Shown: positions 16,405 to 60,959, counted from the first letter of the stretch. The stretch: 64,000 nt of DNA from a virus (IMGVR_UViG_3300025250_000043:5115-69114), one strand, 5' to 3'. Program-made: numbers and translations. Notes: a model not told the origin generated them from the letters alone.

Positions 16405-16561
16405 ATGCGACCTCCAGAAAAGGAAATGGGCAGACCCGAAAGCCTGCCCACGTTTCCTACCACAGAAACGGCCAGCGCTCCGGTTTGGGCCTTCGTGCTG
16501 ACTTGGCGAACCTACGCCGCGCCCTACCCGAATTCAACCGTAAATCGCCCGGTTTGCAACT

Positions 16562-16627
16562 TGACAAAAAAATTTGTTGAAGCGCCACCGCGACAAGTTT
16601 ATATGTCAGCCCTCACCTACCACGGAG
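16562..16627 (+). promoter_or_regulatory. Promoter of ADP-ribosylglycohydrolase: two 18-bp operators, -35/-10, CCTACCAC, SD
   Basis: TGACAA-AAAAAT-TTGTTG (16562), CGACAA-GTTTAT-ATGTCA (16591), TTGAAG-N17-TATATG, CCTACCAC-GGAG (16616). Confidence 0.7.
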
Positions 16628-16636
16628 AAGCGACAC

Positions 16637-17542
16637 ATGATGAACGTACAACAGGCCGTCGGCAGCTTTATCGGGCTCGCGGTCGGCGATGCTCTCGGCG
16701 CAACACTCGAATTCGGCCCGCGCCTGCATCACAACCCGCACACCGAAATGATCGGCAAAGGTCCGTTTGGCCTAAAACCAGGCCAGTACACCGACGATAC
16801 CGCGATGGCTATCGCGCTCTCCCACGGCATCCTCAATTCCGGCAAGGTCTTCAACCCGTTTGAAGCCGCGATGGAATTCGCAAGCTGGTATGCTCGCGGC
16901 AAATACTCGTCGAATGGGCGATGCTTCGACATCGGCAACCAGACGCGCAAGGCGCTCGATCGCTTCATCGACACTAAGACGGCAATCGCCTCTGAAGACG
17001 AAGAGGCGCGAGGCAACGGCGCGATGATGCGGCTTGCTCCCGTCCCGATCGCCTATTGGCAGTCGCCGGAGACGGCGGCCCATGTCGCGGACCTTCAGGC
17101 GCGCATCACCCACAATAGCCAATACAACGCCGCCGCGTGCCGCTGGCTTGCGTATCGCCTGGCGAAGCAATTCTCGTCGTCGCGAAGCCTTTTCCATGAG
17201 ATCGACGGCGACGGCGAGGAATTGCTCGCCGGCAACATGGAGCTCATTGCCTGCGTCCGCGAGCGGTGGAAGGTGCTACCGCCCTCGTCGGTGATCTCGG
17301 ATGGCCATGTAATGCACACTCTTGGCGCGGCGCTTTGGTCAGTCCAGAACACAAGCACCTTTGAGGCGGCCGTCGTGACGGCTGTAAACCTGGGCGGGGA
17401 CGCCGACACCGTCGGCGCGGTCACTGGCATGATTGCCGGCGCGGTCTATGGCGTGGACGCCATCCCCGAGCGCTGGAGCCGGGTTCTCGTTCACCGCGAC
17501 CCGATCAAGAGCCTGGCGCAACGGCTCACGCAACTGAATTGA
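16637..17542 (+). CDS. ADP-ribosylglycohydrolase (ARH/DraG family)
   Basis: GLAVGDALGATLEF, YTDDTAM, GNGAMMRLAP, THN, GGDADTVGAVTGMIAG all present. Confidence 0.95.
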   Translation: MMNVQQAVGSFIGLAVGDALGATLEFGPRLHHNPHTEMIGKGPFGLKPGQYTDDTAMAIALSHGILNSGKVFNPFEAAMEFASWYARGKYSSNGRCFDIGNQTRKALDRFIDTKTAIASEDEEARGNGAMMRLAPVPIAYWQSPETAAHVADLQARITHNSQYNAAACRWLAYRLAKQFSSSRSLFHEIDGDGEELLAGNMELIACVRERWKVLPPSSVISDGHVMHTLGAALWSVQNTSTFEAAVVTAVNLGGDADTVGAVTGMIAGAVYGVDAIPERWSRVLVHRDPIKSLAQRLTQLN

Positions 17543-17547
17543 CGAAG

Positions 17548-20216: not shown

Positions 20217-20456
20217 CTAAAGTCAACCAGAATTTTTGTTGATTTCGCAAAATTTGATGTCATTCTAACAATCTTCCTTGTTTTTTGGAAGGTCACATTT
20301 GCCGGGCGCACAAGCGTTTTTGTCAAAAGTGAATTGCGCATCCGTCCCGACGCGAGTAAGGGGCGGCTTCCTACCACCCACGAAACGGCCCAAAATGAAG
20401 CACCGAACGATGCATTCTCACGCCCGCCGAGCACCTTCGACGCGGGGGCCTTGCCT

Positions 20457-21335
20457 ATGACGCAAGACGCCAAACAACCCTATGTGCGGTTCTTCGTGTC
20501 CGACTGGCTTGGCGGGACACGCGGCATGAAGTCGAATGAGATCGGCGTCTACATCACCCTGCTTATGCTCATGTATGAGCGGGCGGCTCCGGTGCCGGAG
20601 AACCATGAGCGCTTAGCGCGCCAGTGCGGTTGCACGCCGAAGACCTTCTCGCCGATCCTCGAAATGCTGGTCGACGACGGCAAAATTCGCCGCGTCGAGG
20701 GCGGTCTTTGGAACGGCCGCGTGGAAAAAGAATTCGATTTCCGTCGAAAAAATTCGGAAGGCAATTCCAAGGCCGCAAAAAATCGCTGGCAAAAACCCAA
20801 TAAAAACAATGACGATTCGATGCAGGCGCATAGCGAGCGCAATGCGGATGCAATGCCTAATCCAGAAGCCAGAAACCAGAATATAGAACCTGACGGTTCT
20901 AGCGCGCCTCCGGCCGCGCCCAAACCACCGAAGCCGACGGAGCCTCCGAAGCCGACGGCGCGCCAAGAGCTCGAAACGGTTCTCAGCCGAGCGACCGCCG
21001 ATGCCGTCCTGAAGCACCGGACGAAAATCCGGAAGCCTCTCACCGACCACGCCGCGAAGCTGCTCGCCGGCAAGTTCGCCAAATGCAGCAACCCCGACGC
21101 GGCGGCCGACGCGATGATCGCGAATGGCTGGCAAGGCTTCGAACCGGAATGGGTCGAGGGCCGCCAGTCGCGAAACCAGAACAACGGACCTACCACCCAA
21201 CGCGGCTCCGGCTTCCTGGCCGACCTGGCGCGTGAAACCTACCACGGAGACGAAACCAATGAACGACTTGGACTTCAAGAAACGGGCGGCGCTGTTATCG
21301 ATGCTACTCGCCTCCTTCCCGGAGGCGGCCGGTGA
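20457..21335 (+). CDS. Replication initiator (DUF1376/YdaU family)
   Basis: PYVRFFVSDWLGGTRGM..EIGVYITLLMLMY; C-terminal AMIANGWQGFEPEW. Confidence 0.85.
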   Translation: MTQDAKQPYVRFFVSDWLGGTRGMKSNEIGVYITLLMLMYERAAPVPENHERLARQCGCTPKTFSPILEMLVDDGKIRRVEGGLWNGRVEKEFDFRRKNSEGNSKAAKNRWQKPNKNNDDSMQAHSERNADAMPNPEARNQNIEPDGSSAPPAAPKPPKPTEPPKPTARQELETVLSRATADAVLKHRTKIRKPLTDHAAKLLAGKFAKCSNPDAAADAMIANGWQGFEPEWVEGRQSRNQNNGPTTQRGSGFLADLARETYHGDETNERLGLQETGGAVIDATRLLPGGGR

Positions 21336-21654
21336 CAGCGAGGCCAAGGGCCGCGCCTACCTACTCGCAACCCGCGACATCGAATTGAGCGTGCTTGAAA
21401 GGGCGGTCGGCCGCTTCATGCGAGGCGAGGTCGAGGGCCGCAACCCGGTATTCTGCCCGTCGACCGCCGAGCTATGCGCGGAGGTCCGTCGGCTTGAGGC
21501 GCACGATCGATATATCGAGCACAAGGCCAAGGCCGACAAATTGCCCAAGCCGAGGCCGGAGCCTGAAGCCGCGATCTCGCCAGAGCAAAGGGCGGCGACG
21601 GTCGCGAAGCTCCGCGAGAAATTCCCCGGCTTCTTTGGCGGCAAAGTCGAGTGA
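21259..21654 (+). CDS. Replication accessory protein (helicase-loader/inhibitor-like)
   Basis: LLASFP...AYLLATRD...RAVGRFMRG...FCPSTAEL; follows initiator; CCTACCACGGAG RBS. Confidence 0.6.
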   Translation: MNDLDFKKRAALLSMLLASFPEAAGDSEAKGRAYLLATRDIELSVLERAVGRFMRGEVEGRNPVFCPSTAELCAEVRRLEAHDRYIEHKAKADKLPKPRPEPEAAISPEQRAATVAKLREKFPGFFGGKVE

Positions 21655-21711
21655 CAAAATTTTTTGTCATACCCGCTTGACGACGTTTTCTAAGTGGCCT
21701 AAATCTAGGCC
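21652..21711 (+). promoter_or_regulatory. Composite early promoter (18-bp operator + TTGACG-N17-TAAATC + GGCCTA-N4-TAGGCC)
   Basis: TGACAAAATTTTTTGTCA 21652-69; TTGACG 21677; GGCCTAAATCTAGGCC 21696-711. Confidence 0.8.
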
Positions 21712-21741
21712 ACACAAGAGAAACGAAACGGAGCCTTCGAC

Positions 21742-22061: not shown

Positions 22062-22117
22062 GCAATGGCCCGGGTTTAAACCCTTCCGCTCACCTACCAC
22101 GCAAACGGAGAACGACC

Positions 22118-22415: not shown

Positions 22416-22473
22416 TGACAACCTTTTTTGTTGACATTTCGGCCGGAGCCGCCGATCGTTCTGCCCCTACCAC
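22416..22473 (+). promoter_or_regulatory. Operator-overlapped promoter
   Basis: TGACAA-CCTTTT-TTGTTG overlapping TTGACA; CCTACCAC at 22466. Confidence 0.65.
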
Positions 22474-22728: not shown

Positions 22729-22757
22729 AACTCAACCCCTACCACAGGAGACGAAGC

Positions 22758-23189: not shown

Positions 23190-23356
23190 TTCCAGACATA
23201 GCGCGGCACCTTGCCGGAGCCTCCAGCCCGGCAACAGAAGCTGAAACCCGAAGCCGAGGACCGCTAGGCGGAGGGCGTGCCGGTTCGACCATGGTCAAGC
23301 CGGGGGCGGTGACGAACAGGAAACCCGCCATTTCCTACCAAGCAACGGAGCCGAAA

Positions 23357-26088: not shown

Positions 26089-26151
26089 CTTTTCCATAAA
26101 AAGCGCGTAGCATTTTAGGCGTCCTACCACCTACCACGAGGAACGTCTGAC

Positions 26152-26682: not shown

Positions 26683-26706
26683 ATCCTACCACCGAAGGAA
26701 ACAGAA

Positions 26707-27116: not shown

Positions 27117-27160
27117 CGAAATTCCTGTAGCGGCCTAAATCTAGGCCACTACCGCAGGAG
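27098..27160 (+). promoter_or_regulatory. Composite early promoter
   Basis: TGACAA-CAAAAG-TTGTTG; TTGACG-N17-TAAATC; GGCCTAAATCTAGGCC 27132-47; CTACCGC-AGGAG. Confidence 0.8.
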
Positions 27161-27523: not shown

Positions 27524-27548
27524 CCACCTACCACACAAGGAACGCGAA

Positions 27549-28760: not shown

Positions 28761-29244
28761 TCTCCCGGCGACCTTCTCGCCGTGCCGTACCTGGCGCTAC
28801 ACCCTTCGTCGCCGTTGGGCGGACGGCAAGTCGGCCGCGTTCATCCTTCTCAACCCGTCGACCGCCGACGAAGTCCAAGACGATCCGACCATTCGCCGCT
28901 GCATCGCCTACGCGAAGCGTTGGGGCTACGGCGGCTTAATACTTGGCAACGCCTTCGCTCTCCGGTCGACCGATCCCCGCGGGCTCTATTCGCACGCCGA
29001 TCCGAACGGCCCCGGCAACGACCAGGCGCTCGCCGAGATCGCGAAGGAAGCCGACCGCGTGGTTTGCGGTTGGGGAACCCATGGCGCGCTCATGGGGCGC
29101 GGCGCGGCCGTTCTGGACATCATCCGCCAGGCCGGAGCCGAACCGCTCGCCCTGAAGCTCACGGCGGCCGGCTATCCCGGCCACCCGCTCTACCTCCGCC
29201 AAGACCTTCAACCCTTCCCGTTTTCTACCACTGGAGCGAACTGA
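28750..29244 (+). CDS. DUF1643 protein
   Basis: FSPCRTWRYTLRRRW, LNPSTAD..DDPTIRRC, VVCGWG, HPLY. Confidence 0.9.
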   Translation: MSTDLPATFSPCRTWRYTLRRRWADGKSAAFILLNPSTADEVQDDPTIRRCIAYAKRWGYGGLILGNAFALRSTDPRGLYSHADPNGPGNDQALAEIAKEADRVVCGWGTHGALMGRGAAVLDIIRQAGAEPLALKLTAAGYPGHPLYLRQDLQPFPFSTTGAN

Positions 29245-29826: not shown

Positions 29827-30105
29827 ATGGCCAGACCCGACGAAAGGAAGCTCCCCGCCGCGCTCCGCGAGCTCTTAGGCCGACTGAAGGCCGGCGCGGT
29901 GTTGTGTAAGGAAGTCGCCGCGACCAGCGCCGAGGCGAACCAGGGCGGCTTTGTTTGGTTCATGCATCCGACCGGCGTTCGCGTCGCGAAGGATCAAGCC
30001 GACGCCCTCTTGAAGATGGGCTTCGTCGAGCCGGCCGGCGACAGCCTCTTTGCCGGCGACGGCCAGACCTTTCCGCTGGCCGGAACCCGGTTCAAAAACG
30101 GCTGA
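29827..30105 (+). CDS. Hypothetical protein
   Basis: 92-aa ORF; stop codon is the TGA of the next operator. Confidence 0.7.
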   Translation: MARPDERKLPAALRELLGRLKAGAVLCKEVAATSAEANQGGFVWFMHPTGVRVAKDQADALLKMGFVEPAGDSLFAGDGQTFPLAGTRFKNG

Positions 30106-30175
30106 CAAAATTTTTTGTCAGACCCTATTGCGTTCCCGTAAAGGGTGGCCTAAATCTAGGCCACCTACCACGGAG
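30103..30175 (+). promoter_or_regulatory. Composite early promoter
   Basis: TGACAAAATTTTTTGTCA; TTGCGT-N17-TAAATC; GGCCTAAATCTAGGCC 30147-62; CCTACCAC-GGAG. Confidence 0.8.
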
Positions 30176-30986: not shown

Positions 30987-31058
30987 CAAATTTATTTGTC
31001 GAAGCGCTTGACGGCGCTCCGACGCGCGGCCTAAAAATCGACCTTCCCTACCACGGAG
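30984..31058 (+). promoter_or_regulatory. Composite early promoter (half GGCCTA site)
   Basis: TGACAA-ATTTAT-TTGTCG; TTGACG 31008; GGCCTAAAAATC; CCTACCAC-GGAG. Confidence 0.7.
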
Positions 31059-31065
31059 AGACGAC

Positions 31066-31284
31066 ATGCAACGGGTTCAAATTCCCGCCTATACCGACAC
31101 ATGGATGCGAGGGGATCGATACGGGTTCCTCGACAACGTCACGCGGATGCGGGCTGACAAAATCCACGCCAGCATCCGGCCCCGCCACGTTGCCGACGGC
31201 GACATGGTCGAGATCGCTCACGTCAAGCTCGACAAGTCGGGCAAGACGGGCCGGTTCATCCTTCTCGACTGCAACGCGATCTAG
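31066..31284 (+). CDS. Hypothetical protein
   Basis: MQRVQIPAYTDTWMRGDRYG. Confidence 0.7.
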   Translation: MQRVQIPAYTDTWMRGDRYGFLDNVTRMRADKIHASIRPRHVADGDMVEIAHVKLDKSGKTGRFILLDCNAI

Positions 31285-31295
31285 GAGCCGGCAAC

Positions 31296-31523
31296 ATGAC
31301 CGCCCACGCTATGCCTGAGAGATCATACGAGAAGATCGAGGAAATCATCGACTTGGAGACGCCCGACAACACCGGATGGTGGATCGTCTACTACGACCCC
31401 GACGGCACGTCTTACGACGCGATCGGCCCCTTCGATACCTGCATGGAAGCGACCGACGTTCACGAAGGGTGCGGCGAAGAGCCGGACCTTGCCCGCGCTA
31501 TGGCGAAGGGGTTCGGCCGATGA
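31296..31523 (+). CDS. Hypothetical acidic protein
   Basis: AGGAG RBS; GWWIVYYDPDG. Confidence 0.65.
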   Translation: MTAHAMPERSYEKIEEIIDLETPDNTGWWIVYYDPDGTSYDAIGPFDTCMEATDVHEGCGEEPDLARAMAKGFGR

Positions 31524-32065
31524 ACGCGGAAGCGAAGATCGAGATCGCCGCGACGATCGGCCTAAGCAAGGTCGAGCTCTACACGATCCGGAGCGCCAAG
31601 CGCGGGGAATGGGCTTACATCACGATCGACGAGAGCTCCGGGCTTTTCCTGGCCCTCTCCAGCTATGGCACCTTCGGCTATTGCTGGACCGCGATCGGCA
31701 ATGAGACGCTGAAGCAATTCCTTGCGAGCCTCAATTTCGGGTATTTCTTCAGCAAGGTCGCCGAGCAAACACGCGGCCAGGTCTTCAGCCCCGGGAAGAC
31801 GGTCGAGGGCATCAAGCGCCTTGTGCTCGAACGCAGCCGCAATGGCGAGATCACGAAGAGCCAGGCGCGAGGCGCATGGGAAGCCGCCGAGGCGAGCGAA
31901 GGCAACCACGACGCACACGAATTCTTCGACGAGTTGCTTTCGGACGCCGACATCCTGGCCGTTTACGACGGGGACTATGGCGACATCGAGCGGCGCGAGC
32001 GCGACCCGCAATGCGTCGGGTTTTGGGAGCACATTTGGCCGGTATTTCTGGAGGCAATTCGATGA
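31520..32065 (+). CDS. Hypothetical phage protein
   Basis: WAYITIDE...SSYGTFGYCWTAIG...FLASLNFGYFFSK; ATGA coupling. Confidence 0.75.
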   Translation: MNAEAKIEIAATIGLSKVELYTIRSAKRGEWAYITIDESSGLFLALSSYGTFGYCWTAIGNETLKQFLASLNFGYFFSKVAEQTRGQVFSPGKTVEGIKRLVLERSRNGEITKSQARGAWEAAEASEGNHDAHEFFDELLSDADILAVYDGDYGDIERRERDPQCVGFWEHIWPVFLEAIR

Positions 32066-32117
32066 TGATCGTCAACCTAAAGGGCCGAGCGAAAGCCAGC
32101 CGAGGATTGCATGACCA

Positions 32118-32690
32118 TCAAGCGCCCTTGCGTTGAAGCTTCTGTCGCTCTCGCGGCGCCTTACCCTCAATCAACCGCTGCGGAGGCGCGGACCCCGAAA
32201 CCTCTGTTGGCTCGTCGTCAACTGGCAGACCAAACTTCTCTTCGACCCGCCTCTGGTACTGATCAAAATCTCGATATCGCCGTTCAGTATCGGATATCGC
32301 ATACAAAAGCGCCCCGGCCAAAAGGTAGCCAAATAAGGCGATGGCTCCCCCAACCAAGCTATGAACTATTGACGGATGCGCCTCTCTAGCTATGTGCTCG
32401 TCTACCATCACCGTACTAGAAAGGACGGCAGCTATAATCGACATAGTCGCCAGGGTAAGGTAGTTGACATACCGGTCTTTCTTGCCGGTTCGAAAATCCT
32501 TGACTAGCCGGTACATTCGCCATTCGCTGTCCCGCCTCTTGCTAAGCTTGCGCTCTCGCCGCCTAGCGACAAATTCACCTACACTGGGCGACAGGAAAAG
32601 TGCGAGGAACGTAGCAATTATCCCAATGGCGGTGAAAGCCGAACCGAGCGCGATGTCCTTAGCCGTTATACCCCATGAAGTAATATCCAT
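32118..32690 (-). CDS. Multi-pass membrane protein (accessory)
   Basis: Three hydrophobic segments; visibly more AT-rich than flanking phage genes. Confidence 0.65.
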   Translation of the reverse strand: MDITSWGITAKDIALGSAFTAIGIIATFLALFLSPSVGEFVARRRERKLSKRRDSEWRMYRLVKDFRTGKKDRYVNYLTLATMSIIAAVLSSTVMVDEHIAREAHPSIVHSLVGGAIALFGYLLAGALLYAISDTERRYRDFDQYQRRVEEKFGLPVDDEPTEVSGSAPPQRLIEGKAPRERQKLQRKGA

Positions 32691-32818
32691 CCCCAAACCC
32701 TTTCTGCGCCGCCAATCCCAAGTTGCTGTAACTAGCAGCTTCTGCAATCGGGCGATACTTCAGGGATTTTCTTCGCGGGTGAACCGCAACGTCGCGTGGC
32801 GTAGCATGTTCTCGCGCC

Positions 32819-33223
32819 TCAAGGTTTTGACCCTGCCCCTGGGACGTACTGATCAGGCCCCGCAAGCGAGAGCATTGACCGAACACGTTCAACGATCGTT
32901 TCGACATCGGCCGGTTTTGGGACAAACTCCCCGAGCCGAAACACCGGATCGACGCCATCAATGAGGGCGCCCGTGTGCACGACGAACGGGACGCCCAGAT
33001 CTACGAGCTTTTCTGCGACATTAGTGCATTCGCCGTCTGGCAAACGAATGTCGAGCACCGCCGCATCAGGCCGATATTCGGACAAATAGCCCTCGGCCTT
33101 CGCGCACGAATTAAACAAGATAGGCGCCAAACCTGCCCGTTCCAGCGCATCCTCGATGTCGAGGGCTACCAGCGCTTGGTCTTCAACAACCAGGATCGCT
33201 GAACCTTGAACGTGTTCTGACAT
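32819..33223 (-). CDS. Single-domain response regulator (receiver)
   Basis: ILVVEDQALVALDIE...AAVLDIRLPDG...VPFVVHTG...FVPKP. Confidence 0.85.
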   Translation of the reverse strand: MSEHVQGSAILVVEDQALVALDIEDALERAGLAPILFNSCAKAEGYLSEYRPDAAVLDIRLPDGECTNVAEKLVDLGVPFVVHTGALIDGVDPVFRLGEFVPKPADVETIVERVRSMLSLAGPDQYVPGAGSKP

Positions 33224-33326
33224 ATCCCGCGCCTCCCCTGATGAGGAAGGCAAAGTTTTATCACTCCGTACGCTGTATTGGAGTCGGACTTTTGGCCTAG
33301 GAGCCGCTGTCTTCGGCGTTGCCTGT

Positions 33327-33756
33327 TCAAAGCCCCTTCGCCTGCGCATAAGGTGACCAGCCGTCAGGCGTATCAGCGATGTAGCGGGTGAACTCGACCT
33401 CGAGTTCTGACACCGCGAGATCCTTCGTGTTGCACCTTCCCCCGGCCGCCGCCGTGGCCGCGCCAACGGCGGTCATGTGTCGAGCACGACCAGGACCATA
33501 TCCCGGCACTCGGCCCATGCGTCTCGCCCATGACGCGGCCGACGGAATCTGATCCCAGGAACTTCGGGGAAAAGTCGTGTGGGAGGGAGTTCCCGTTGAT
33601 CACTGTCCGCCCCCAATCGAGCCAGAAGCGCGCCCCGCGATCGCGAACGAATCGCGCCATCTCGACGATACTCGCGAAGCGCCCAAGCACGTCGTCGCCG
33701 TCGAACACCTCATAGGCGCCGTCGACTTCGCGGGCCTTCAATCGATCGGCGGGCAT
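33327..33756 (-). pseudogene. Hypothetical gene, probably frameshifted near 33440
   Basis: One frame reads ...WSWSCSTHDRRWRGHGG; another continues RCNTKDLAVSELEVEFTRYIADTPDGWSPYAQAKGL*. Confidence 0.4.
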
Positions 33757-33833
33757 GGTCCTTCTCTGCGATCACGAGTCGTTGCGGACCCAAAAAATTG
33801 GAACGCTTCGTGCGAGTCAAGCTGTGGCCTAGA

Positions 33834-34022
33834 TCAGACTCGGCGGACCTGTTTCTTTCGGCCGACAGGCATCTTTGATGAGCAGGCTTCCCGGATAATC
33901 GTGGCGGCTTCGTGAATGGTGATGCCGACCTTGCGGGCATAGTAAGTGGCCTCCGCTTCCAGCTCGCCATCCAGTGGGGCCGCAACAGCCAGTTTTGCCT
34001 TATGCTTCGCCTTCTTTCCCAT
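33834..34022 (-). CDS. Small DUF3606-like protein
   Basis: EATYYARKVGITIHEAATIIRE. Confidence 0.55.
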   Translation of the reverse strand: MGKKAKHKAKLAVAAPLDGELEAEATYYARKVGITIHEAATIIREACSSKMPVGRKKQVRRV

Positions 34023-34049
34023 CGGTCGAATCATAGCACATTTACAGGA

Positions 34050-34268
34050 TCAAAGCTCGCCGCCATCGCGATGATCCAAGGCTTCGACGATGACCTCGAA
34101 CACGCTGGGCACTTCCTCACTGATTTCCGTCGTGGGAATGCCTGCCCGGTCCGCCGCGCTCATAGCCTTGTCCGCAAGGTCGCTGATGACGATCGGATCG
34201 TCGGTCGCGGTTTCGGGCAGCTGCTCTGCCATCCATTTATCGAGGAAGTTGATGCCGCGTGTGCTCAT
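34050..34268 (-). CDS. DUF768-family protein (copy 1)
   Basis: MSTRGINFLDKWMAEQLP...ADKAMSAADRAGI. Confidence 0.85.
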   Translation of the reverse strand: MSTRGINFLDKWMAEQLPETATDDPIVISDLADKAMSAADRAGIPTTEISEEVPSVFEVIVEALDHRDGGEL

Positions 34269-34305
34269 CGAGCTTTAAGCTCAATAGCCGGCTTAGGTTC
34301 CCCTG

Positions 34306-34497
34306 CTACATCCGAACGATGTTATCCAGCCCTAAGCGTCTGCGCTGGCCTTCCGCAAATGAGAGCGCGTACGACTCCAGCACGAACGATCGGGTAAATT
34401 CTTGGTCTTCCTCGACCACGCGAACGTCCCACTCACCGCCGGCTTCGACCACTTCAACGCGCGGATCGCCATTCAAGTTTATGGTTATGCTGTCCAT
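34306..34497 (-). CDS. Small hypothetical protein
   Basis: GGAGG RBS; FTRSFVLESYALSFAEGQRRRL. Confidence 0.65.
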   Translation of the reverse strand: MDSITINLNGDPRVEVVEAGGEWDVRVVEEDQEFTRSFVLESYALSFAEGQRRRLGLDNIVRM

Positions 34498-35100
34498 CGC
34501 AATTCTCCTCCGAAAGCAATGACAACTGAGTTTTTTTATAAATCCGGCGGAGTTGGCCTTTCAATAGCAAAAGACGGTTCGGTTTAGTACCAATGCGAGC
34601 GTCATTCCTCGCGGAAATCCTGCACCGAAGCGTGCCGCAAATCCTCCTCGCCGCGCAACGGCTTCACGCGGCCGCGATCAAAGGCGTTCGACCCCAAGCT
34701 TAACGCGGTTCGATCGGCAACCCACGCGTTCGCACCATATCCGCGCCTACGACATTAGCTGGTTTGAATATGCGACGGAGAAATCCGTCGGGCCGGCGTT
34801 CTGCCCATTCTTTACCCCCAAGGACGCCGGCCACCTTTTTCGACTTTATCGTCCGCTCTGAGGCAATCGCTCTCGATAGCGGCGAATGGCCTCCGATATG
34901 TACATTGCATACCGCCGCTCGACCACTCGGCGTCGATCGGCATCCAAATTATTGCGCGCCAAATGCGCTGTCGACCATGTAATGAGGATGTGTAGATCAT
35001 CGTCGTTCAACTCAGGGAGAGTTCTTGCCATGCGCAATTTCTGTACGGGTTATGGATACACTCAGCAGGATTGCTCGTTTAGCTGACGGAGCTTAAGGCC

Positions 35101-35322: not shown

Positions 35323-35345
35323 CAACCTCAAGCAACTGGCTGAGG

Positions 35346-36474: not shown

Positions 36475-36500
36475 ACACTGACCCGCACAAACCGCGATTC

Positions 36501-36525: not shown

Positions 36526-36549
36526 GAAGCAGGAAATGATTCTCGATTT

Positions 36550-36574: not shown

Positions 36575-36607
36575 TCGCTCAATCCGTTCTCATCTGGAGG
36601 AAAGGGC

Positions 36608-40883: not shown

Positions 40884-40890
40884 ATGTCAC

Positions 40891-42452: not shown

Positions 42453-42846
42453 TTTCCAGATCATTGAGGATTTCCTTGAGCTCCCCGGCGTGGATGGCGC
42501 GCGCGGCGCGGTCGGCGAGGAATTGGCGTTCGGCTTCGGCTTTGCGTTCGGCGTCGGCGGCGCGGAGTTGGGCGGCCTTGTCACGGGCCTCTTGGGCGGC
42601 CTTGACCCAGGCGGCGCGCTCTTCGCTCACGCCGGCACCGTGGCCGGCCTGGCGGGCTCGCTCGACCCGCCCAATGGCGATGTCGTCGAGCAGCGGACCG
42701 ACCGCCGGCACGTAGCGGACGATCGGCACGGCCGTTTCGATTTCCTTCACGACCGGAACGCCCTCGTAGAAGACGAGAACGCCGATCGCGACGATGGCAG
42801 CTGGCGACAAACGCGACAGCAGCCAGGCCAGGGCGCCGGAGATCAT
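42340..42846 (-). CDS. i-spanin (Rz-like)
   Basis: N-terminal TM plus coiled coil and C-terminal Cys; follows endolysin. Confidence 0.7.
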   Translation of the reverse strand: MISGALAWLLSRLSPAAIVAIGVLVFYEGVPVVKEIETAVPIVRYVPAVGPLLDDIAIGRVERARQAGHGAGVSEERAAWVKAAQEARDKAAQLRAADAERKAEAERQFLADRAARAIHAGELKEILNDLENAPSPDDRCHVPSVSKRLSIGLDKAGRASARRPANGE

Positions 42847-43364
42847 CGGCCGGCTTCCTTCAGGCCACGGAGGCACATGGCTTGCTCGCTCTCGCGGCCG
42901 GCGTCGCCCTTGACGCGCCGGTTGAAGAGCCCGCGCACGACCTCGCCCTTGACGTAGACCCATTTCGAGAGCTGGAGGCACGCGCCGCGAAGATCGCCGG
43001 CCTTCACCTTGGCGATCAGGGTCGACTTGCAAGCGGCTCCGGTGCCGACGTTGAACGCCCAATCGTTGATGGCGACATAGGCCGGGCCAGGGACGCGTTT
43101 CTCGTCGCCGAGCTCCGGCGCACAGGCCAGCAAGCGCATTTCATGCGCGACGATGTCCTTGCGGGTGATCTCGTCGCATTCGGCCGGCGTGTAGAGCTTA
43201 TCCTTGATGATGTCGGGTCCGGTGTGGCCTCGACACACGGTAAGGACATGGCCGACATCGTAGTACGGCCGGTATTTGGTTCCTTCCCACGACCCGGTGT
43301 ACGCGGTGGCAGCAGCAAGCAGGGCAAGCCCCGCCGCTCCGCTCTGGAGGTAACGGCTTTTCAT
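42843..43364 (-). CDS. Endolysin, GH24 lysozyme (SAR-type N-terminus)
   Basis: WEG..Y.PYYDVGHVLTVCRGHT, FNVG, ACLQLSKWVY, GLFNRR. Confidence 0.93.
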   Translation of the reverse strand: MKSRYLQSGAAGLALLAAATAYTGSWEGTKYRPYYDVGHVLTVCRGHTGPDIIKDKLYTPAECDEITRKDIVAHEMRLLACAPELGDEKRVPGPAYVAINDWAFNVGTGAACKSTLIAKVKAGDLRGACLQLSKWVYVKGEVVRGLFNRRVKGDAGRESEQAMCLRGLKEAGR

Positions 43365-43632
43365 CGAAATTTTCCTTTGGAGTTTGGGCCACGAAGCGGG
43401 CGACCAGGCCGGCGCAAATGACCACGAAGAGAAGGGCAGCGAAGACGTTCGGCGGGAACCGATCGCTGTAGAGCGGCAAGATCGCTTCGGCCCCGGAGAG
43501 GATGCCGGCGACCGCCAGGATGCGAACCGACCAGGCGCGCTTGAGCACGTCTCGCCAGTTGTCGATCAGCCTGAGTTCGGTCGCACGAAATCGCCTCCAG
43601 GCAGCTTTCGCCGCCAGAGTGAGGGCAGACAT
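43198..43632 (-). CDS. Putative holin
   Basis: LIDNWRDVLKRAWSVRI, two TM segments, GLVARFVAQ; precedes endolysin. Confidence 0.75.
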   Translation of the reverse strand: MSALTLAAKAAWRRFRATELRLIDNWRDVLKRAWSVRILAVAGILSGAEAILPLYSDRFPPNVFAALLFVVICAGLVARFVAQTPKENFDEKPLPPERSGGACPACCCHRVHRVVGRNQIPAVLRCRPCPYRVSRPHRTRHHQG

Positions 43633-43693
43633 GACGATGTCCTTGGGTTGCGGCCTAGAACTAGGCCAGGGCGCGCCTTAGCGGTAGTGGCGC

Positions 43694-43816
43694 TCAAAAG
43701 AACACCCTCCAGACGACGAAGGCGGTGAATGCGGAGCCGACGACGAAGCCGCCGGTCGCCCACAAGAGCCGATCGATGATCGGCGCGATGATAGGGACTA
43801 GCTCCATGATCTTCAC
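43694..43816 (-). CDS. 40-aa membrane peptide after portal
   Basis: GTG start overlapping portal stop; IIDRLLWATGGFVVGSAFTAFVVWRVFF. Confidence 0.45.
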   Translation of the reverse strand: MKIMELVPIIAPIIDRLLWATGGFVVGSAFTAFVVWRVFF

Positions 43817-45309
43817 GCCGCCTTCGCCGGGTTCGGGTTGTCGTTCGTGGCGTTCGGGTCATCCGTGGTGGCGGGATTATCCGGCTCCGTCCCCAAGCCC
43901 GTCCCCTCTTCCGCCAGGAGCATTTCCTCCGCGTCGGCGTCGAAGCTTGCCGCGAGCTCGCCACGGCGCTTCAATTCCGACCAGTAGGTCTTGCGCGACA
44001 ACTGACCGGCGACGCGAGCCTTCAGAAGGCTATCCATCGTCGGGCTGTCATTGCCCATGTCGTCGTCGAATTCCGTCTGGACATTGACCGAGGGCGCCCG
44101 CGTCGTGTCGGCCGCGCCGCGATAGCGCTCCGCGAACACGAAGGCCCGCTCAAGCGCATCCTTGAGATTGAGGGCCATGTTCTTGACCGCCGAATTCTCG
44201 CGGCGCTCGCCGGCCTTGACTGAGGTCGCGGTGATGACGCCGGAGCCCTTTTGGTGCGGCTTCATGGCGAGCGCGTCCATTTCCGCCTCCAGACGCTCAA
44301 GGTCTTTCTGGCCGGCCTCGATCGCCTTGCCTTCGGCCTCGACGTAGTACCACTTGCCTTGCGGGTCTTCCGTGGTGAGCAGCGAGTTGGGGCCGATCAC
44401 CGGCTTGACCGGAGCGTCCTCGCCCTTCTTCGGGACCGGCATCTTGACGCCGGAGCCCGCCAGGATCGGGAACCGGGCATACTTCAGGATGTTGCGCTGG
44501 TCGCTCGACGACTGCCAATGCTCGACGTTCTTCCACGCAAGATCGAGGAAGGGCGGCTTGACCGTGAACCCGGTCTTCGTGGCGCGGCGGCCGGTGAAAA
44601 AGGGGATGAGTGAGACTTCGCCGAGTGGAGCCGGCCCGCTCGCGACGATCTTCCACTCTTTCGCCTCCGTGCCTGCGTCGTCGACCGAGAGCTCCCATAA
44701 GTCCCATCCGTCGGAACGATAGTGGCGGACCCGCTTAACCGTGTATTCGGTGAAGCCGACCATTTTGACGCCGTTCTCAAACCAACGGGCATCAATGACC
44801 GTCGGCCGGCCCGTCCCCATGGACACGGTGCAGGAGAGCACGTCTTCAGCCCGGAAGTGAACGAAATAGGGCCGGATGTTGCCGGCGATCTCTTGCGCCA
44901 GGGTCATGCCAGGTTCGGCGCGAGGCATATCGACCAGAATGTACGCCAGGCCAGCGGTGACGCCGTCTTCAAGGAAGCGGCGCGCGAACACGTCGAGCGA
45001 GTTGCCGAGGAAGTCCACGTCATAGATGAACTGGTCATAGTACGGGTCATACTCGCCAGCGAGGGCGATAGGCGTTCCCATAGGCTTGCCGACGGCGAGA
45101 TTGACCGCGCCTTCAAGCTTGTTGAGCAGCACGGTTTCGGCCTTGCGGCCCTCGTAGCGCTGCGGGTCTTCCGTCGGCCATTTCGGGAGATAGCTTTCTC
45201 CGGCCGCGCGCATGGCCTCCGTGCCAGCCATGACCGTACGGAGCACCTTGAAGCTGGATTGGTTTGCCTTGTAGTCGGCGGAGGGAACGGTAGGATCGAT
45301 ATTCGCCAT
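43813..45309 (-). CDS. Portal protein (DUF4055 family)
   Basis: GTEAMRAAGESYLPKWPTED..RY..R, PYFVHFRAEDV, IPFF, PPFLDLA..N..HWQSSSD. Confidence 0.92.
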   Translation of the reverse strand: MANIDPTVPSADYKANQSSFKVLRTVMAGTEAMRAAGESYLPKWPTEDPQRYEGRKAETVLLNKLEGAVNLAVGKPMGTPIALAGEYDPYYDQFIYDVDFLGNSLDVFARRFLEDGVTAGLAYILVDMPRAEPGMTLAQEIAGNIRPYFVHFRAEDVLSCTVSMGTGRPTVIDARWFENGVKMVGFTEYTVKRVRHYRSDGWDLWELSVDDAGTEAKEWKIVASGPAPLGEVSLIPFFTGRRATKTGFTVKPPFLDLAWKNVEHWQSSSDQRNILKYARFPILAGSGVKMPVPKKGEDAPVKPVIGPNSLLTTEDPQGKWYYVEAEGKAIEAGQKDLERLEAEMDALAMKPHQKGSGVITATSVKAGERRENSAVKNMALNLKDALERAFVFAERYRGAADTTRAPSVNVQTEFDDDMGNDSPTMDSLLKARVAGQLSRKTYWSELKRRGELAASFDADAEEMLLAEEGTGLGTEPDNPATTDDPNATNDNPNPAKAA

Positions 45310-45311
45310 TG

Positions 45312-54588: not shown

Positions 54589-55030
54589 GGGTCTGCTCCG
54601 TGGTAGAAATCTTGAAACGCGGGTTGATAAGGCCCCACGCCTTGATGATCTCGATCGCCTCGTCGAGGCTCTTCGCGATCTCGTATTCAAAGCCGGCCGC
54701 CTCGATCTCGGCGCGAAACTTGCGCTGATTGGGATTGGCCGACCCGGTCTTCGATTTGAGCTCCAGAAAGAACGTCCGCCCTTCGTGGAAAAACAGAAGG
54801 TCGGCGATGCCGTCCTTCATGCCCATCCGCTGAAGCTTTTTCAGGTAGCGGACCAGGCGGATGCCTTGATTGGGGACGTGCGCCATAACGACGCCAGGCA
54901 ACAACACGTCATCCAAAAGGGAGACGAGAGCGATATGAAGATCATCTTCCGGCCTCGCTCTCTTGGCCTTGCCGCCGCGCCCGGAGGCGCGACGGAGTTT
55001 GGTGAGTAGAGGGACACGCCGCCGCTTCAC
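54344..55030 (-). CDS. VRR-NUC-family nuclease
   Basis: GMKDGIADLLF...FLELKSKTG....NQRKF; 3' extension overlaps next gene. Confidence 0.85.
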   Translation of the reverse strand: MKRRRVPLLTKLRRASGRGGKAKRARPEDDLHIALVSLLDDVLLPGVVMAHVPNQGIRLVRYLKKLQRMGMKDGIADLLFFHEGRTFFLELKSKTGSANPNQRKFRAEIEAAGFEYEIAKSLDEAIEIIKAWGLINPRFKISTTEQTLVSRSVSKRGTAISRRSDSASAGSEGEALRPPQVGQCAAGANPRGGLPSGEGGDQAGTDRGPAPRAGTPRLRYQPGNSARD

Positions 55031-55914: not shown

Positions 55915-56010
55915 TTCAAGTTTCCTTTTCCAGTGGTAGGCTTGCGCCCGTTTTCGTCCTGTGGAAGAGCGAAGTCGGGCCGAGAGAGATTTACACAAAC
56001 GTTGCCCTTT

Positions 56011-56828: not shown

Positions 56829-56876
56829 GCGTTCACGGAGAACGCCCACATGACCTACCACGTCGGAACGAACTGA

Positions 56877-56912
56877 AAAAAGCCGGCCTCCAATCCGTGA
56901 GGCCGGCTTTTT
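56877..56912. terminator. Bidirectional intrinsic terminator in early leader
   Basis: AAAAA-GCCGGCCTC-CAATCCGT-GAGGCCGGC-TTTTT. Confidence 0.8.
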
Positions 56913-56958
56913 CGTTGTGCGCGCTCTCCGTTCCTACCGCAAAACGGAGACAACCCTA

Positions 56959-58561: not shown

Positions 58562-59130
58562 TCGAGCTCAATGACGAAGTGAAGGCGCGCGTTAGCGCCT
58601 TCACCAAAAACCCGCTTGCCGACCGCTGGAAGGCACCAAGGGCCGAGCGCGCCGAGCTTATCGGCGACCTGGCCGCTCACGACTACTCGGCGGCCGAAAT
58701 GGCTGTCATCTTCGGTTGCTCGCGCAATGCCGTCATCGGATTTGCCGACCGCCAGGGCGTCAAGCTTGGCGGCCATGAGAAGCACGCGACGACGCGCACA
58801 AGGAAGCGCGCCGAGCGGGCTCCCCGCCAGCCTAAGACGCGCAAGCGGATGAAATTCGGTCTGGAGATCGTCCCGAAAGGCAAACCGCTTCCCCAGGCGC
58901 CCCAACCGATCGCCGAAGACCCGAACGCGGTCTTGACGATCGCGGAGCGTCCGAACCGGGTCCATATCCTCGACGCCGAGCTCTCGCATTGCCGGTTCCC
59001 GCTCTGGAGCTCCGAGCGTAAGCCCGCCCTGGCCGAAATGTTCTTCTGCGGCGCAACCAAGGAAGACATCTTGAAGCCTTATTGCAAGGCGTGCGCGGCG
59101 TCCGGACTGACCTATAGGGCGGTGGCATGA
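58558..59130 (+). CDS. gcrA: GcrA cell-cycle regulator homologue
   Basis: SAAEMAVIFGCSRNAVIG; C-terminal CRFPLW...FFCG...PYC. Confidence 0.85.
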   Translation: MIELNDEVKARVSAFTKNPLADRWKAPRAERAELIGDLAAHDYSAAEMAVIFGCSRNAVIGFADRQGVKLGGHEKHATTRTRKRAERAPRQPKTRKRMKFGLEIVPKGKPLPQAPQPIAEDPNAVLTIAERPNRVHILDAELSHCRFPLWSSERKPALAEMFFCGATKEDILKPYCKACAASGLTYRAVA

Positions 59131-59609
59131 GCGGGAAAAAGAAAGCCGACGACAAGCCGTTTACGATGCTTCGCCGCGTCCCGAACGGCTTCGTTCCTCT
59201 CACCGCCTACGATCACGAAATGATCGAGCGCGTCCCGATGTTCGCCGACGTGCGCGCGGCCATCACCATGCCGCGCTCGCTCCCTCGCCATCGGTTCTAT
59301 TGGGTGCTTCTCGGCATTGTCGCGGAGAACCAAGACCGCTGGCGCACGGCGGAAGACCTTCACACCGCGATCAAGGTCAAGCTTGGCTATATCGAAGACT
59401 TCCACCTTATCGACGGAAGCCTCTTGATCCGGCCGCGCTCGACCAACTTCGACAGCATGGATGAGCTCGACTTCCGCGACTACTTCGACCGGGCGCTCGA
59501 AATCATCTGCACAGACATCATTCCCGGCCTCGACATAAGAGCATTGAAGGCCGAGGGCGAACGCAAGATCGGCAAGCCTCGAAATGACCGCTACCTATCG
59601 CACGCTTGA
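59127..59609 (+). CDS. DUF1367/NinB-like protein
   Basis: PRSLPRHRFYWVLL...PRSTNFDSMDELDFRDYF. Confidence 0.75.
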   Translation: MSGKKKADDKPFTMLRRVPNGFVPLTAYDHEMIERVPMFADVRAAITMPRSLPRHRFYWVLLGIVAENQDRWRTAEDLHTAIKVKLGYIEDFHLIDGSLLIRPRSTNFDSMDELDFRDYFDRALEIICTDIIPGLDIRALKAEGERKIGKPRNDRYLSHA

Positions 59610-60468
59610 CATTGAGACTTCGGGGACCGACCCGAAGGAACACGAAATCCTGCAAATCGGCTGGCGCGACGGCGCGGTCGACGGGAAGGCTATCGCCCTA
59701 GATCCTTTGTATCTGGAAACCTTCGTCCAGAACACGAAGCCGATCCCGATCGAAGCAAAGGCCATCCATCATATCAGCGAGGAAGACCTCGCCGTTGCGC
59801 CTCCGCGCTCGATCGCCATCGAGCGGATCAAGCGGGCAAGCCTCTACATCGCACACAATGCCGATTTCGAGGCTTCCTTCCTTCCGGAGCTCGCTCCGTG
59901 GGTTTGCACCTACAAGACCGCCCTACGCCTCGTCCCCGACGCGGCGAAGCACAACAACCAATATCTTCGCTACCACTTCGGCGTGGCCGTGAGCCGCGAT
60001 GAACGCGAGAGCCTATTCCCGCACCGCGCCGGCCCGGATGCCTATGTGACCGCGCCGATCTTCCTCCAGCTTTTGCGCCTGGCACCGCTGGAGGAATTGC
60101 TCCGGATTTCCGAGCTCCCGCCCCTCTTTAAGCGGTTCGCCTTCGGCAAGCACAAAGGCCAACCGATCGCCGACGTTCCGCTCGACTACTTCAACTGGAT
60201 CAATCGCGAGGGCGACTTCGACGCCGCCGTGCTGCACTCGATCGCGGTCGAGCGCGCCCGCCGGCTGGAGGGCGACCACGAAGCCTATTACACCCTGGCG
60301 TGCGCGGCGCTCGAAACGGCCGACAGCCGGCCCGCCCTGGTCGATTGGTGGAAGCGCGAAGAGCCGAACCGCTCAAAGCATTGGATGCGCGAGGGCGCGC
60401 CGCTCTATGACCGCCTCGTCGCCCGTTGCGCGGCCAAGACGGCGACCTTCGTCGCGGAGGCCGCATAA
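59584..60468 (+). CDS. DEDDh 3'-5' exonuclease (ExoX-like)
   Basis: LDIETSG, IAHNADFE, PHRAGPDAYVT, FAFGKHKGQPIADVP.DY. Confidence 0.88.
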   Translation: MTATYRTLDIETSGTDPKEHEILQIGWRDGAVDGKAIALDPLYLETFVQNTKPIPIEAKAIHHISEEDLAVAPPRSIAIERIKRASLYIAHNADFEASFLPELAPWVCTYKTALRLVPDAAKHNNQYLRYHFGVAVSRDERESLFPHRAGPDAYVTAPIFLQLLRLAPLEELLRISELPPLFKRFAFGKHKGQPIADVPLDYFNWINREGDFDAAVLHSIAVERARRLEGDHEAYYTLACAALETADSRPALVDWWKREEPNRSKHWMREGAPLYDRLVARCAAKTATFVAEAA

Positions 60469-60959
60469 TGACGATTGCCGTCCGCGAACCCGTGGCCGCG
60501 CCGCCGGCCGGCTACCGCCCGAAAATCAGCGTCAAGACCACGCTGGAGGCTTGCTTGCTTCAGGCCCGCTGCCCGGATTGCGGAGAGAAGCTTGGCGCGC
60601 TCGACAACATCCATCGCGACCACGTCCCGCCGCTCCAGATGCGCGCATGGGATGCGGAGGCCGGCGACACGATCCCGGCCGCGAACGATCCGAATCATAT
60701 CGTCCTACGCCACGCCGATTGCCACAAGGGAAAGACCTCCGGCGGCAAGACCAAGGCGAAAGCGCAAGGCGACGTGACGGAGATTTATCGCACGCGGCGA
60801 CTGGCCCAAAAACAGGCCGACATGCGCGCGCGAATGCTCGCCCGCACGGCCCCGGAGGAAGACACGGAGCCGCCCGACAGACCGCCGAAGCGGAAGTCAA
60901 AGTTCCCCTCTCGACCCTTCCAAAAGCGCCCTACCACGCTGAAACGGACAGACAGATGA
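60468..60959 (+). CDS. HNH-like nuclease
   Basis: CPDCG...HRDH.PPL...N.P......H..CH..KT. Confidence 0.75.
   Translation: MTIAVREPVAAPPAGYRPKISVKTTLEACLLQARCPDCGEKLGALDNIHRDHVPPLQMRAWDAEAGDTIPAANDPNHIVLRHADCHKGKTSGGKTKAKAQGDVTEIYRTRRLAQKQADMRARMLARTAPEEDTEPPDRPPKRKSKFPSRPFQKRPTTLKRTDR

Follow-up and report, generated by a model that had tools for sequence, protein, structure and literature searches.

CCUACCAC is a start-associated box of a temperate Hyphomicrobiales phage; it occurs in 5' leaders and intercistronic spacers, and the genes concerned are early and accessory ones. The window, the 64-kb stretch of phage DNA analyzed here, contains 22 exact copies of CCTACCAC, 19 on the plus strand and three on the minus strand, whereas dinucleotide shuffles gave an expectation of 0.51 and a maximum of three; extending the count to the first 5 kb of the 69,114-bp virus record yields no additional copy. 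The original prediction of an enrichment in the leaders of non-structural genes is thus confirmed. The orientation of the box follows the direction of the gene in every case. For approximately 17 genes the box ends 10–21 nt before the start codon with GGAG or AGGA in between, and in 12 of these GGAG or AGGAG abuts the box with a gap of 0–1 nt. Overall, 0–9 nt separate the box from a distinct GGAG on its 3' side. As had also been claimed, tail, head and lysis genes and the island lack the box: exact copies are absent from positions 1–16455 (tail and head) and 31055–47219 (island, lysis, terminase/portal). Almost all uncoupled early starts carry the box, which itself comes without a boxB-type hairpin. 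The exact 8-mer is constant and its flanks are variable within the window. Whole start regions can be alike, for example GGAGAAGCGAC(AC)ATG, and promoter-plus-leader cassettes occur repeatedly. The phage also has a separate network of palindromic operators, apart from the box. Many early ORFs of the window have no known function. The window sequence is present in five root-metagenome DNA runs and in no listed RNA run.

On the plus strand, the box is followed by GGAG at 16616..16623 (ATG 16637, an ADP-ribosylglycohydrolase), 21238..21245 (ATG 21259, 131 aa, phrog_18745), 31047..31054 (ATG 31066, 72 aa), 47220..47227 (ATG 47240, an amidoligase) and 51752..51759 (ATG 51770, a gamma-glutamylcyclotransferase-like protein), and also at 30164..30171, where it lies directly 3' of a GGCCTAAATCTAGGCC hairpin (ATG 30183, 172 aa). 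GGAAG follows the box at 22466..22473 (ATG 22486, 80 aa) and AGGAG the box at 22738..22745 (ATG 22758, 143 aa); at 22093..22100 GGAG comes 6 nt later (ATG 22118, 83 aa). Two boxes overlap (CCTACCACCTACCAC) at 26123..26137 (ATG 26152, 44 aa). The plus-strand box at 26685..26692 lies directly 3' of a CTAAAT -10-like hexamer and precedes a winged HTH gene (ATG 26707, HTH_39), that at 27527..27534 occupies a 25-nt intercistronic spacer (ATG 27549, 62 aa), and that at 60930..60937 precedes a 73-aa HTH protein (ATG 60956) encoded just upstream of the integrase gene. Several HTH proteins are encoded by the phage. On the minus strand, the box at 53342..53349 (ATG 53320, 202 aa) sits in a hairpin loop whose 3' stem arm holds the Shine-Dalgarno (SD) sequence, and the box at 55933..55940 precedes a gene that ends at 55593.

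All exact copies previously listed were recovered, but two had been overlooked: the minus-strand copy at 55933 and an extra plus-strand box at 21189..21196, which is 49 nt upstream of the 21238 box and has no SD of its own. The proposed one-mismatch copies precede an SD and a start at 23334..23341 (+, CCTACCAA, ATG 23357, a sliding-clamp-like protein), 29224..29231 (+, TCTACCAC, ATG 29246, 130 aa), 54600..54607 (-, TCTACCAC, then GGAG, a gene with a DnaA-C-like HTH) and 56933..56940 (+, CCTACCGC, ATG 56959, Gp157-like), while ACTACCGC at 27148..27155 (+), located 3' of a GGCCTAAATCTAGGCC hairpin and before ATG 27168, proved to have two mismatches. Placement in front of genes likewise held for approximately 17 genes but not for every copy. 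The box at 16456 (+) precedes no gene, and that at 20370..20377 (+) is 17 nt before an ATG that opens a 21-codon ORF only. The copy at 52674..52681 (+), in the 3' region of a plus-strand operon, is followed by AGGAG and a small hairpin with no start codon; that at 56854..56861 (+) is within an 8-codon mini-ORF (ATG 56851) followed by a terminator hairpin; and that at 48846..48853 (-) lies 1 nt past the stop codon of a ParB/methyltransferase gene, the next ATG being 46 nt downstream.

The copy at 16456 had been listed as an ordinary one, and its possible role as an antisense partner was not recognized. On the minus strand, GUGGUAGG (16463–16456) is the exact complement of CCUACCAC and is part of a hairpin at 16451..16470 with a 7-bp stem (CGUUUCU/GGAAACG) and the loop GUGGUA, followed by GG. 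Directly 3' of this anti-box hairpin, a terminator scan located an intrinsic-terminator-like hairpin (16415..16451, minus strand) with 9–11 pairs, a UUCG loop and a U-rich tail, whose G-U pairs are valid on the minus strand only. Among the 30 terminator-like sites in the genome, this is the only one with an anti-box within 40 nt. We infer that the element is transcribed as a candidate small RNA (R1 family) that would extend over approximately 16410..16530 on the minus strand, its 5' end being approximate. The R1 covariance model matches the window at 16404–16510, and a leave-one-out model, R2, built without the window, gives 16410–16482 (-) as its top match in the 64 kb (E 0.002). Upstream of the candidate RNA lie a palindromic operator at ~16561–16578 and a -35/-10 pair, TTGCAA-N17-TGAATT, that is weak by consensus. 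No Rfam family, C4 included, matches the candidate RNA at the gathering score; sub-threshold matches are at chance level. At the 52674 copy, the sequence CCTACCACAG is complementary to the RNA loop region over 10 nt.

Every CCTACCAC- or TACCAC-bearing phage found retains the hairpin and terminator, and compensatory changes accompany this conservation. In alignment A2, which comprises only six sequences that represent some three or four lineages, the stem is maintained by compensatory changes in all six phages, with 96.6% of cells paired and five pairs changed on both sides. None of 500 shuffles matched the paired fraction or the covariation score of A2, and slid controls were 27–61% paired. 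About one-fifth of the A2 cells are G-U pairs, which would be mismatches if read on the other strand. In the window and in each of G003–G006, the complement of the phage's own box lies within 40 nt of exactly one of the 16–30 terminator-like sites per genome. R1 was found only in box-bearing phages among ~150 related loci, and only in the G001 prophage among 151 host-family genomes. Boxes number 8 in G410 and 10 in G411, two new R1 carriers, compared with 0–4 in contigs that have the terminator alone. The hairpin-terminator element and the box therefore co-occur, a result that is partly circular as the conserved loop of the model is the box complement by construction; only the stems and the terminator count as independent. 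R1 and R2 revealed no homologues with an altered loop in the ~150 related loci, and their weak matches in L023, G017 and G056 correspond to ordinary terminators or to start regions read in reverse.

Box and RNA also differ between phages. G007 has a different box, UCAGCCAC, and carries GUGGCUGA adjoining a terminator. All boxes of G006 are TACCACGG, and its RNA has CCGUGGUA where others have CUGUGGUA; in G003–G005 the base 5' of the box is always C, facing the GGG of their RNA. The reversed copies deviate at positions where the forward copies are invariant, as that of G003 ends in A, that of G006 has no TA and that of G007 has no GGAG. G003–G006 carry a second anti-box in the 3' UTR of a ParB-like gene, and a search with the ParB-like protein for more such anti-boxes returned the four known phages only. 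All lineage variants of the box are rich in pyrimidines and A, poor in G, and end in CAC before GGAG. Further related lineages have SD-adjacent boxes of their own; for CTGCAACAYGGAG of L148 and CCTTCCGAGGAG of L114, no anti-box was present in the ~21 kb searched. The ATGGCAAMCACGGAG box of Brucella/Ochrobactrum relatives was set aside, having too few copies and an uninformative whole-genome pattern count.

The box is a phage signal rather than one of the host. Among 14 CCTACCACNGAG sites in the genomes of two Mesorhizobium hosts of related prophages, 13 fall in the two box-carrying prophage regions. Clusters of the box occur in two of 401 host-family genomes, and the others have 0–3 copies, similar to the control pattern; equal enrichment before host genes, which had been considered in the original prediction, was not observed. 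The identical 8-mer stands before non-homologous genes in the window and in G003–G006 and G314, which have in common with the window only a methyltransferase (~53% identity), an HNH-like ORF and a lysozyme. A screen for a trans-acting factor by shared proteins returned these same three, 12 kb of the window had no megablast match among GenBank phages, and no relatives of the ARH gene were found in viral contigs. The earlier proposal of a strand-specific, RNA-level cis element at the translation starts of non-structural genes is supported.

The closest known analogue of the box is the start-associated sequence (SAS/ESAS) system of cluster K mycobacteriophages (PMC3203893), and the positional analogy drawn previously holds. 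Both are short, asymmetric boxes located a few nt before start codons in a single orientation and at non-structural genes only. Both occur in 13–19 or more copies, are absent from the host genome (absent or rare for the box described here), are often preceded by an operator/promoter module, and have one reversed copy away from any gene start. In Anaya the single reversed SAS lies in a hairpin loop within a conserved 385-nt non-coding gap. The systems differ in that the SAS consensus, GGGATAGGAGCCC, includes the SD core while CCTACCAC lies 5' of the SD, and the phages infect hosts of different phyla. SAS function is still without explanation (PMC11373665, PMC12699233). The reversed SAS hairpin is not universal in cluster K, as it is degenerate in Ekdilam and absent in Yuna, and it is also absent in K2 and K3 phages (Pope et al. 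2011, PMC3203893), yet SAS persist in each case. An antisense RNA is therefore not the whole reason for such boxes.

We propose, with a probability of about one half, that an antisense RNA encoded by the phage targets the box and thereby governs translation initiation across the early gene set. One small structured RNA, read from the minus strand between ~16530 and 16415, would present GUGGUA in a loop with GG adjoining, and end in the terminator. A kissing interaction between the loop and the UACCAC stretch of the box would come first, and pairing would then extend to 8–10 bp abutting the Shine-Dalgarno sequence. Binding of the 30S subunit would be changed at ~20 genes at once and most likely blocked; such repression might serve early shut-off or silencing in the lysogen. 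The duplex would be limited to 8–10 bp because the flanks of the window boxes have no extended complementarity to the RNA. RNAduplex energies, computed for the RNA paired with every start region, were of little use for telling the classes apart, since long GC-rich partners give approximately -25 to -40 kcal/mol everywhere, and were not used as evidence.

Known small-RNA systems come close to parts of this antisense model. The c4 RNA of phages P1 and P7 and the CI RNA of P4 are small structured phage RNAs whose exposed loop or single-stranded bases pair with complementary boxes in the phage's own transcripts at or near the ribosome-binding site, and in these immunity systems the RNA and the boxes jointly set specificity. 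The candidate RNA similarly has a hairpin with an exposed stretch complementary to phage boxes. However, processing of the very transcript that they target gives rise to the c4 and CI RNAs, which have two target boxes in one operon, whereas the candidate RNA would have ~20 dispersed targets at separate genes and matches neither C4 nor any other Rfam family. AbcR and related RNAs of Rhizobiales are host RNAs with anti-SD (CUCC-type) loop seeds that target host transporter mRNAs. The pairing proposed here would resemble theirs in placing a hairpin-loop seed at or next to the SD of many mRNAs in the same bacterial order, but the seed avoids the SD and matches a phage-only box.

A phage or host protein could instead bind single-stranded CCUACCAC beside the SD as an RNA operator or enhancer and activate or repress translation, the hairpin RNA being secondary or unrelated. 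An exact 8-mer kept while the window flanks vary is consistent with a protein-sized site, there are many early ORFs without known function, and related lineages as well as cluster K phages of the K2 and K3 types keep boxes without a visible antisense partner (PMC3203893). We nevertheless consider this explanation rather improbable. The only proteins that the window and the other CCTACCAC phages share at notable identity are the methyltransferase, the HNH-like ORF and the lysozyme, host genes do not use the box, and the sole reversed copy, a strand-specific hairpin plus terminator conserved with covariation, would be left unexplained.

Cluster A stoperators, the sites bound by the immunity repressor (L5 gp71), suggest a mechanism at the DNA level, in which a monomeric protein on oriented sites would block elongating RNA polymerase in the early operons of the lysogen. 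The box shares with stoperators its many asymmetric sites in short intergenic regions, oriented with transcription, and the several HTH proteins of the phage also speak for this mechanism. Stoperators are, however, DNA sites that also occur across structural operons and are not tied to the SD, whereas the box is missing from the late blocks and its tight coupling to the SD (0–1 nt in 12 copies) would be pointless for a roadblock. A palindromic operator network is already present, and the reversed copies of G003, G006 and G007 differ at positions that are invariant in forward copies. G-U pairs are required for the structure of the reversed copy, which is therefore a feature of RNA rather than of DNA. 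Stoperator-like repression thus appears improbable. A DNA-binding protein would also treat the reversed copy as a site, which is a point against the antisense model.

As improbable as stoperator-like repression is an intrinsic enhancer or spacer with no dedicated partner, where a G-free, C/A-rich stretch keeps the SD free or contacts the ribosome and is made uniform in each genome as promoter and start-site cassettes are copied. The shared composition of the lineage variants (pyrimidine/A-rich, G-poor, CAC before GGAG), the similar start regions of the GGAGAAGCGAC(AC)ATG kind and the repeated promoter-plus-leader cassettes are all in line with this view, but exact identity of an 8-mer across phages that share almost no proteins exceeds a composition effect, and host genes do without the box. 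The translational enhancer raised in the original prediction was not borne out in an rRNA-pairing form, as GUGGUAGG is absent from the sense strand of Mesorhizobium 16S rRNA at up to one mismatch; pairing with rRNA was rejected, the single exact 23S match being within chance.

A processing or antitermination signal, likewise raised in the original prediction, is very unlikely: the box is strand-specific and adjoins GGAG, the cleavage motif of T4 RegB, but it lies anywhere from 0 to 9 nt away from GGAG, a partial scan of ~40 ORFs against Pfam or PHROGs (and hence weak evidence) revealed no RegB-like nuclease or N-like protein, and an operon has a single nut site with a boxB hairpin, whereas the box lacks such a hairpin and recurs at almost all early starts that are uncoupled. 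Other candidates were also discarded. The D-loop of the phage tRNA-Met offers only a generic 6-nt complement (CUACCA/UGGUAG), and no RNA polymerase gene was seen that would suit a T7-like promoter, the 817-aa ORF being a MuF/ADP-ribosyltransferase fusion. Chi-like and methylation sites were ruled out on positional grounds, given the association of the box with start codons.

The cataloguing of SAS began in 2011 and now covers hundreds of mycobacteriophages, with no mechanism assigned. The window provides an unrelated example from an alphaproteobacterial phage, together with a concrete and testable candidate partner, a conserved hairpin-terminator RNA whose loop is complementary to the box. Tentatively, the start-associated boxes of temperate phages may be seed-match sites for phage antisense hairpin RNAs that place the whole early set under one RNA in a microRNA-like manner, and the same logic could apply to cluster K SAS, at least in K1-type phages with the reversed hairpin. 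If the antisense model were true for SAS, the question of function dating from 2011 would be answered, at least for K1-type phages. Without real pairing, there would still be two things to explain, a conserved RNA element and a box specific to the phage. If the pairing is real, a single antisense RNA would act on ~20 start sites of its own phage, a first among phage regulons, and an 8-nt box with one small RNA would be a compact, portable and orthogonal translation handle for phage biology and Rhizobiales engineering. A phage of root-nodule-type bacteria may control its whole early gene set via one antisense RNA.

The 8-mer CCTACCAC, hereafter the box, occurs 22 times in the window, 19 times on the plus strand and three times on the minus strand, against a chance expectation of 0.51 and a maximum of 3 in dinucleotide-preserving shuffles; the window spans bases 5115–69114 of a 69,114-bp record, the remainder of which contains no copy. 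Approximately 17 copies (a number that includes the near-copies at 23334, 27148, 29224, 54600 on the minus strand and 56933) are located 10–21 nt upstream of a start codon with GGAG or AGGA in between, and in 12 copies the box directly adjoins GGAG or AGGAG. The enrichment before Shine-Dalgarno (SD) sequences and start codons described in the original prediction was thereby reproduced, while its list of copies had missed those at 21189 and 55933. The genes led by a box are early or accessory and run in the sense of the box, including those behind the three minus-strand copies, in agreement with the proposed restriction to non-structural genes. They include genes for ADP-ribosylglycohydrolase (ARH), clamp, winged HTH, amidoligase, gamma-glutamylcyclotransferase, a DnaA-C-like HTH and a Gp157-like protein, a small HTH gene preceding the integrase gene, and many genes of no assigned function; translationally coupled genes of the same block carry no box. 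The predicted absence of the box from the tail, head and lysis genes and the island was borne out, and the packaging block is likewise devoid of copies.

Several sites in the window have additional features. An 8-codon mini-ORF at 56851–56920 (ATG ACC TAC CAC GTC GGA ACG AAC TGA) carries an SD of its own and encloses a box; directly 3' of it are a strong terminator hairpin and then a one-mismatch box and the Gp157-like/RecT/exonuclease operon, an arrangement that looks like a leader-peptide attenuator. In the leader of a 202-aa minus-strand gene (53320–53360, minus strand) the box is found in the loop of a hairpin, GCCUUUCC...GGAAAGGC, whose 3' arm is the SD region and which could therefore mask the SD. 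Palindromic operator-like sites, TGACAAAA-N2-TTTTGTCA (YRACAA-N6-TTGTYR), are present at divergent and early promoters (16561–16578, 21652–21669, 30103–30120, 47149, 56782, 2389–2408 and others). An inverted repeat, GGCCTAAATCTAGGCC, overlaps promoter-like modules of the form TTGACG-N16-CTAAAT at 21696–21713, 27132–27149, 30147–30164 and 47165–47180, and lies immediately 5' of a box in three cases.

The box is phage-specific rather than equally enriched before host genes, a point on which the original prediction had proposed to be judged. In two Mesorhizobium genomes (6.2 and 6.4 Mb) with related prophages, 13 of 14 CCTACCACNGAG sites are inside two box-bearing prophage regions. Box clusters were found in only two of 401 genomes of the host family, with six copies each on a single strand over a span of 25–27 kb; the remaining genomes have 0–3 copies, similar to a reversed-pattern control. 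A search of host 16S rRNA for the complement of the box returned no match, and 23S rRNA gave a single match, within chance. An extended SD and an rRNA-pairing enhancer were therefore rejected as readings of the box.

The window belongs to a temperate, myovirus-like phage with genes for a sheath, a DUF4815 baseplate protein, a portal, a MuF/ADP-ribosyltransferase fusion, a lysozyme and an integrase beside tRNA-Pro, and further for RecT, an exonuclease, GcrA-like and sliding-clamp-like proteins and a DUF4942 N6-adenine methyltransferase. Its DNA is present in root-metagenome runs, and its relatives based on the methyltransferase are Hyphomicrobiales prophages (Mesorhizobium, Brucella/Ochrobactrum, Rhizobium, Ensifer and Bradyrhizobium). 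The identical 8-mer occurs 9–13 times in each of the Mesorhizobium-type prophages G003, G004, G005 and G314, with which the window detectably shares only three proteins: the methyltransferase (~53% identity), the lysozyme and an HNH-like ORF. The last of these, unannotated at 60426–60959 (plus strand) in the window, has the pattern CxxC...HxDH...HxxCH. Other relatives carry lineage-specific variants, each with CAC as its end before GGAG: TACCACGGAGA in prophage G006, yCAGCCACGGAG in G007, ATGGCAAMCACGGAG in the Brucella group, and further boxes in loci L148 and L114. A box is missing altogether from many relatives. L148 and L114 represent methyltransferase-linked lineages with SD-adjacent boxes of their own: in L148 (CTGCAACAYGGAG; 3667–13721) nine copies of aaCTGCAACAYGGAG, often following a small hairpin, and in L114 (CCTTCCGAGGAG; 1339–14174) five copies of cCTTCCGAGGAG. 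In the DNA examined, the L148, L114 and Brucella group boxes have no partner carrying the box complement (anti-box). Another group of related loci (L023, L026, L027 and L044; e.g. L027 at 7711) has a box of ~20 nt, CCCnCGCAATCATGCGACCC, that precedes (A)AGGAG and contains a small TCGCA/TGCGA hairpin.

The copy at 16456 had been counted as an ordinary box, a reading that does not hold: no SD or start codon follows it, and it is the complement of a minus-strand hairpin. Read as minus-strand RNA, this anti-box hairpin (16451–16470) has the stem CGUUUCU/GGAAACG and the loop GUGGUA; the hairpin that comes directly after it is terminator-like, has a UUCG loop and ends in a U-rich tail. This site alone among the 30 terminator-like sites of the genome has an anti-box within 40 nt. 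G003–G006 have one such site each among 16–25 terminator-like sites, and G007 has two, including a reversed ordinary copy. In G003–G006 and G314 a homologous element lies on the strand opposite the early genes, ordered as a 5' hairpin, a 6–7-bp hairpin (YCYGUGGUAGGRA) with the same GUGGUA loop, a terminator hairpin and a U-rich tail. In an alignment of the element from six phages, pairing extends to 96.6% of cells, and five pairs show changes in both partners; not one of 500 shuffles matched the paired fraction or the covariation score, and slid controls were 27–61% paired. G-U pairs make up about a fifth of the paired cells and would become A-C mismatches on the other strand; the structure thus belongs to the anti-box-bearing strand. 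When the window was left out of model building, the resulting covariance model still found 16410–16482 (minus strand) as its best match there, with both helices and an E-value of ~0.002. No Rfam family matches the candidate RNA, which is predicted to be 70–120 nt long and to end at 16415–16426; its counterpart in L033 would be a reverse-strand RNA at about 12294–12409.

The element is directly downstream of one of the palindromic operator-like sites, which it has in common with the ARH promoter, and has a small zinc-ribbon ORF and the head genes downstream of it; it could therefore be a stand-alone RNA, a late-operon leader, or both. Its candidate promoter is weak by consensus. The zinc-ribbon-like ORF (93 aa, 16123–16404, minus strand), between the terminator and the head genes, has two CxxC pairs and no match in Pfam or PHROG; its position suggests a late-gene regulator.

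Among ~150 related loci, matches to a covariance model of the candidate RNA are confined to box-bearing phages. In 151 host-family genomes the model matched only the G001 prophage, apart from two weak matches that were plain terminators. Searching viral contigs with the terminator sequence yielded two more carriers, G410 with 8 boxes (7:1 by strand) and G411, which is the G314 prophage, with 10 (10:0); three contigs with a similar terminator and without the seed hairpin have 0–4 boxes. This co-occurrence is partly circular, given that loop and box are complementary; its independent part consists of the stems and the terminator. Box and RNA also differ together between lineages. In G007, with the box UCAGCCAC, GACGUGGCUGA directly precedes a UUCG-loop terminator in a 3' UTR. 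All boxes of G006 are TACCACGG, and its RNA reads CCGUGGUA versus CUGUGGUA in the others. The base preceding the box is always C in G003–G005, opposite GGG of their RNA; in the window this base is not conserved and the RNA reads GGA at that place. In G003–G006 a ParB-like gene bears a second anti-box in its 3' UTR, placed between a UNCG-loop hairpin and a terminator (CUGUGGUAGGGA) or, in G006, taking the form of a loop, UUUUCUCCGUGG, covering CCAC plus the SD. In the Mesorhizobium prophages the 5' leader of this gene contains a box and its 3' UTR the anti-box (L033 17160–17250, L031 17735–17825, L029 16420–16510), so that the mRNA could pair end to end with itself.

The best-supported explanation, to which we assign a probability of about 0.5, is an RNA-level system in which the box would be the target and the hairpin RNA a candidate regulator. 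Loop-to-box kissing would give a short duplex, predicted at 8–10 bp, adjoining the SD. Such a duplex should impede binding of the 30S subunit, so that the predicted pairing would most likely repress the early gene set. The site at 52674–52730, at the 3' end of the XRE/GGCT operon, has a box, AGGAG and a small hairpin without a start codon; its CCTACCACAG matches the loop region of the candidate RNA over 10 nt, and the site may act as a decoy or sponge or may be a relic.

The start-associated sequences (SAS) of cluster K mycobacteriophages resemble the box in distribution and, as originally proposed, in position while differing in sequence. The host phylum also differs, and the box sits 5' of the SD whereas SAS contain it; the box is thus not a SAS family member. 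Each K1 genome has one reversed SAS away from gene starts (PMC3203893). In Anaya (JF704106) a 385-nt non-coding gap harbours it on the sense strand, where it forms the loop of GCGCGG-CCUCCUAUCC-CCGCGC; a conserved TAGACT box (-10-like) lies upstream. This unannotated region near the right end (59,780–59,960), whose hairpin loop is the SAS complement, is conserved in 150 cluster K phages and may encode an antisense RNA that targets SAS. In Ekdilam 17 canonical SAS persist alongside a degenerate hairpin (loop CCUCCUUCCCC), Yuna lacks the anti-SAS hairpin, and K2 and K3 phages have no reversed SAS site. An antisense RNA would therefore be at most one layer over other roles of such boxes. For this reason our estimate stays at about one half, and we retain as rivals a protein that reads the box as an operator, a stoperator-like site acting as DNA, and an enhancer intrinsic to the box.

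In its proposed mechanism the system is akin to the P1/P7 c4 and P4 CI antisense RNAs; it differs in having ~20 dispersed targets and no family membership. The main value of these observations is a concrete box/RNA pair that is cheaply testable and could settle the purpose of start-associated sequences.
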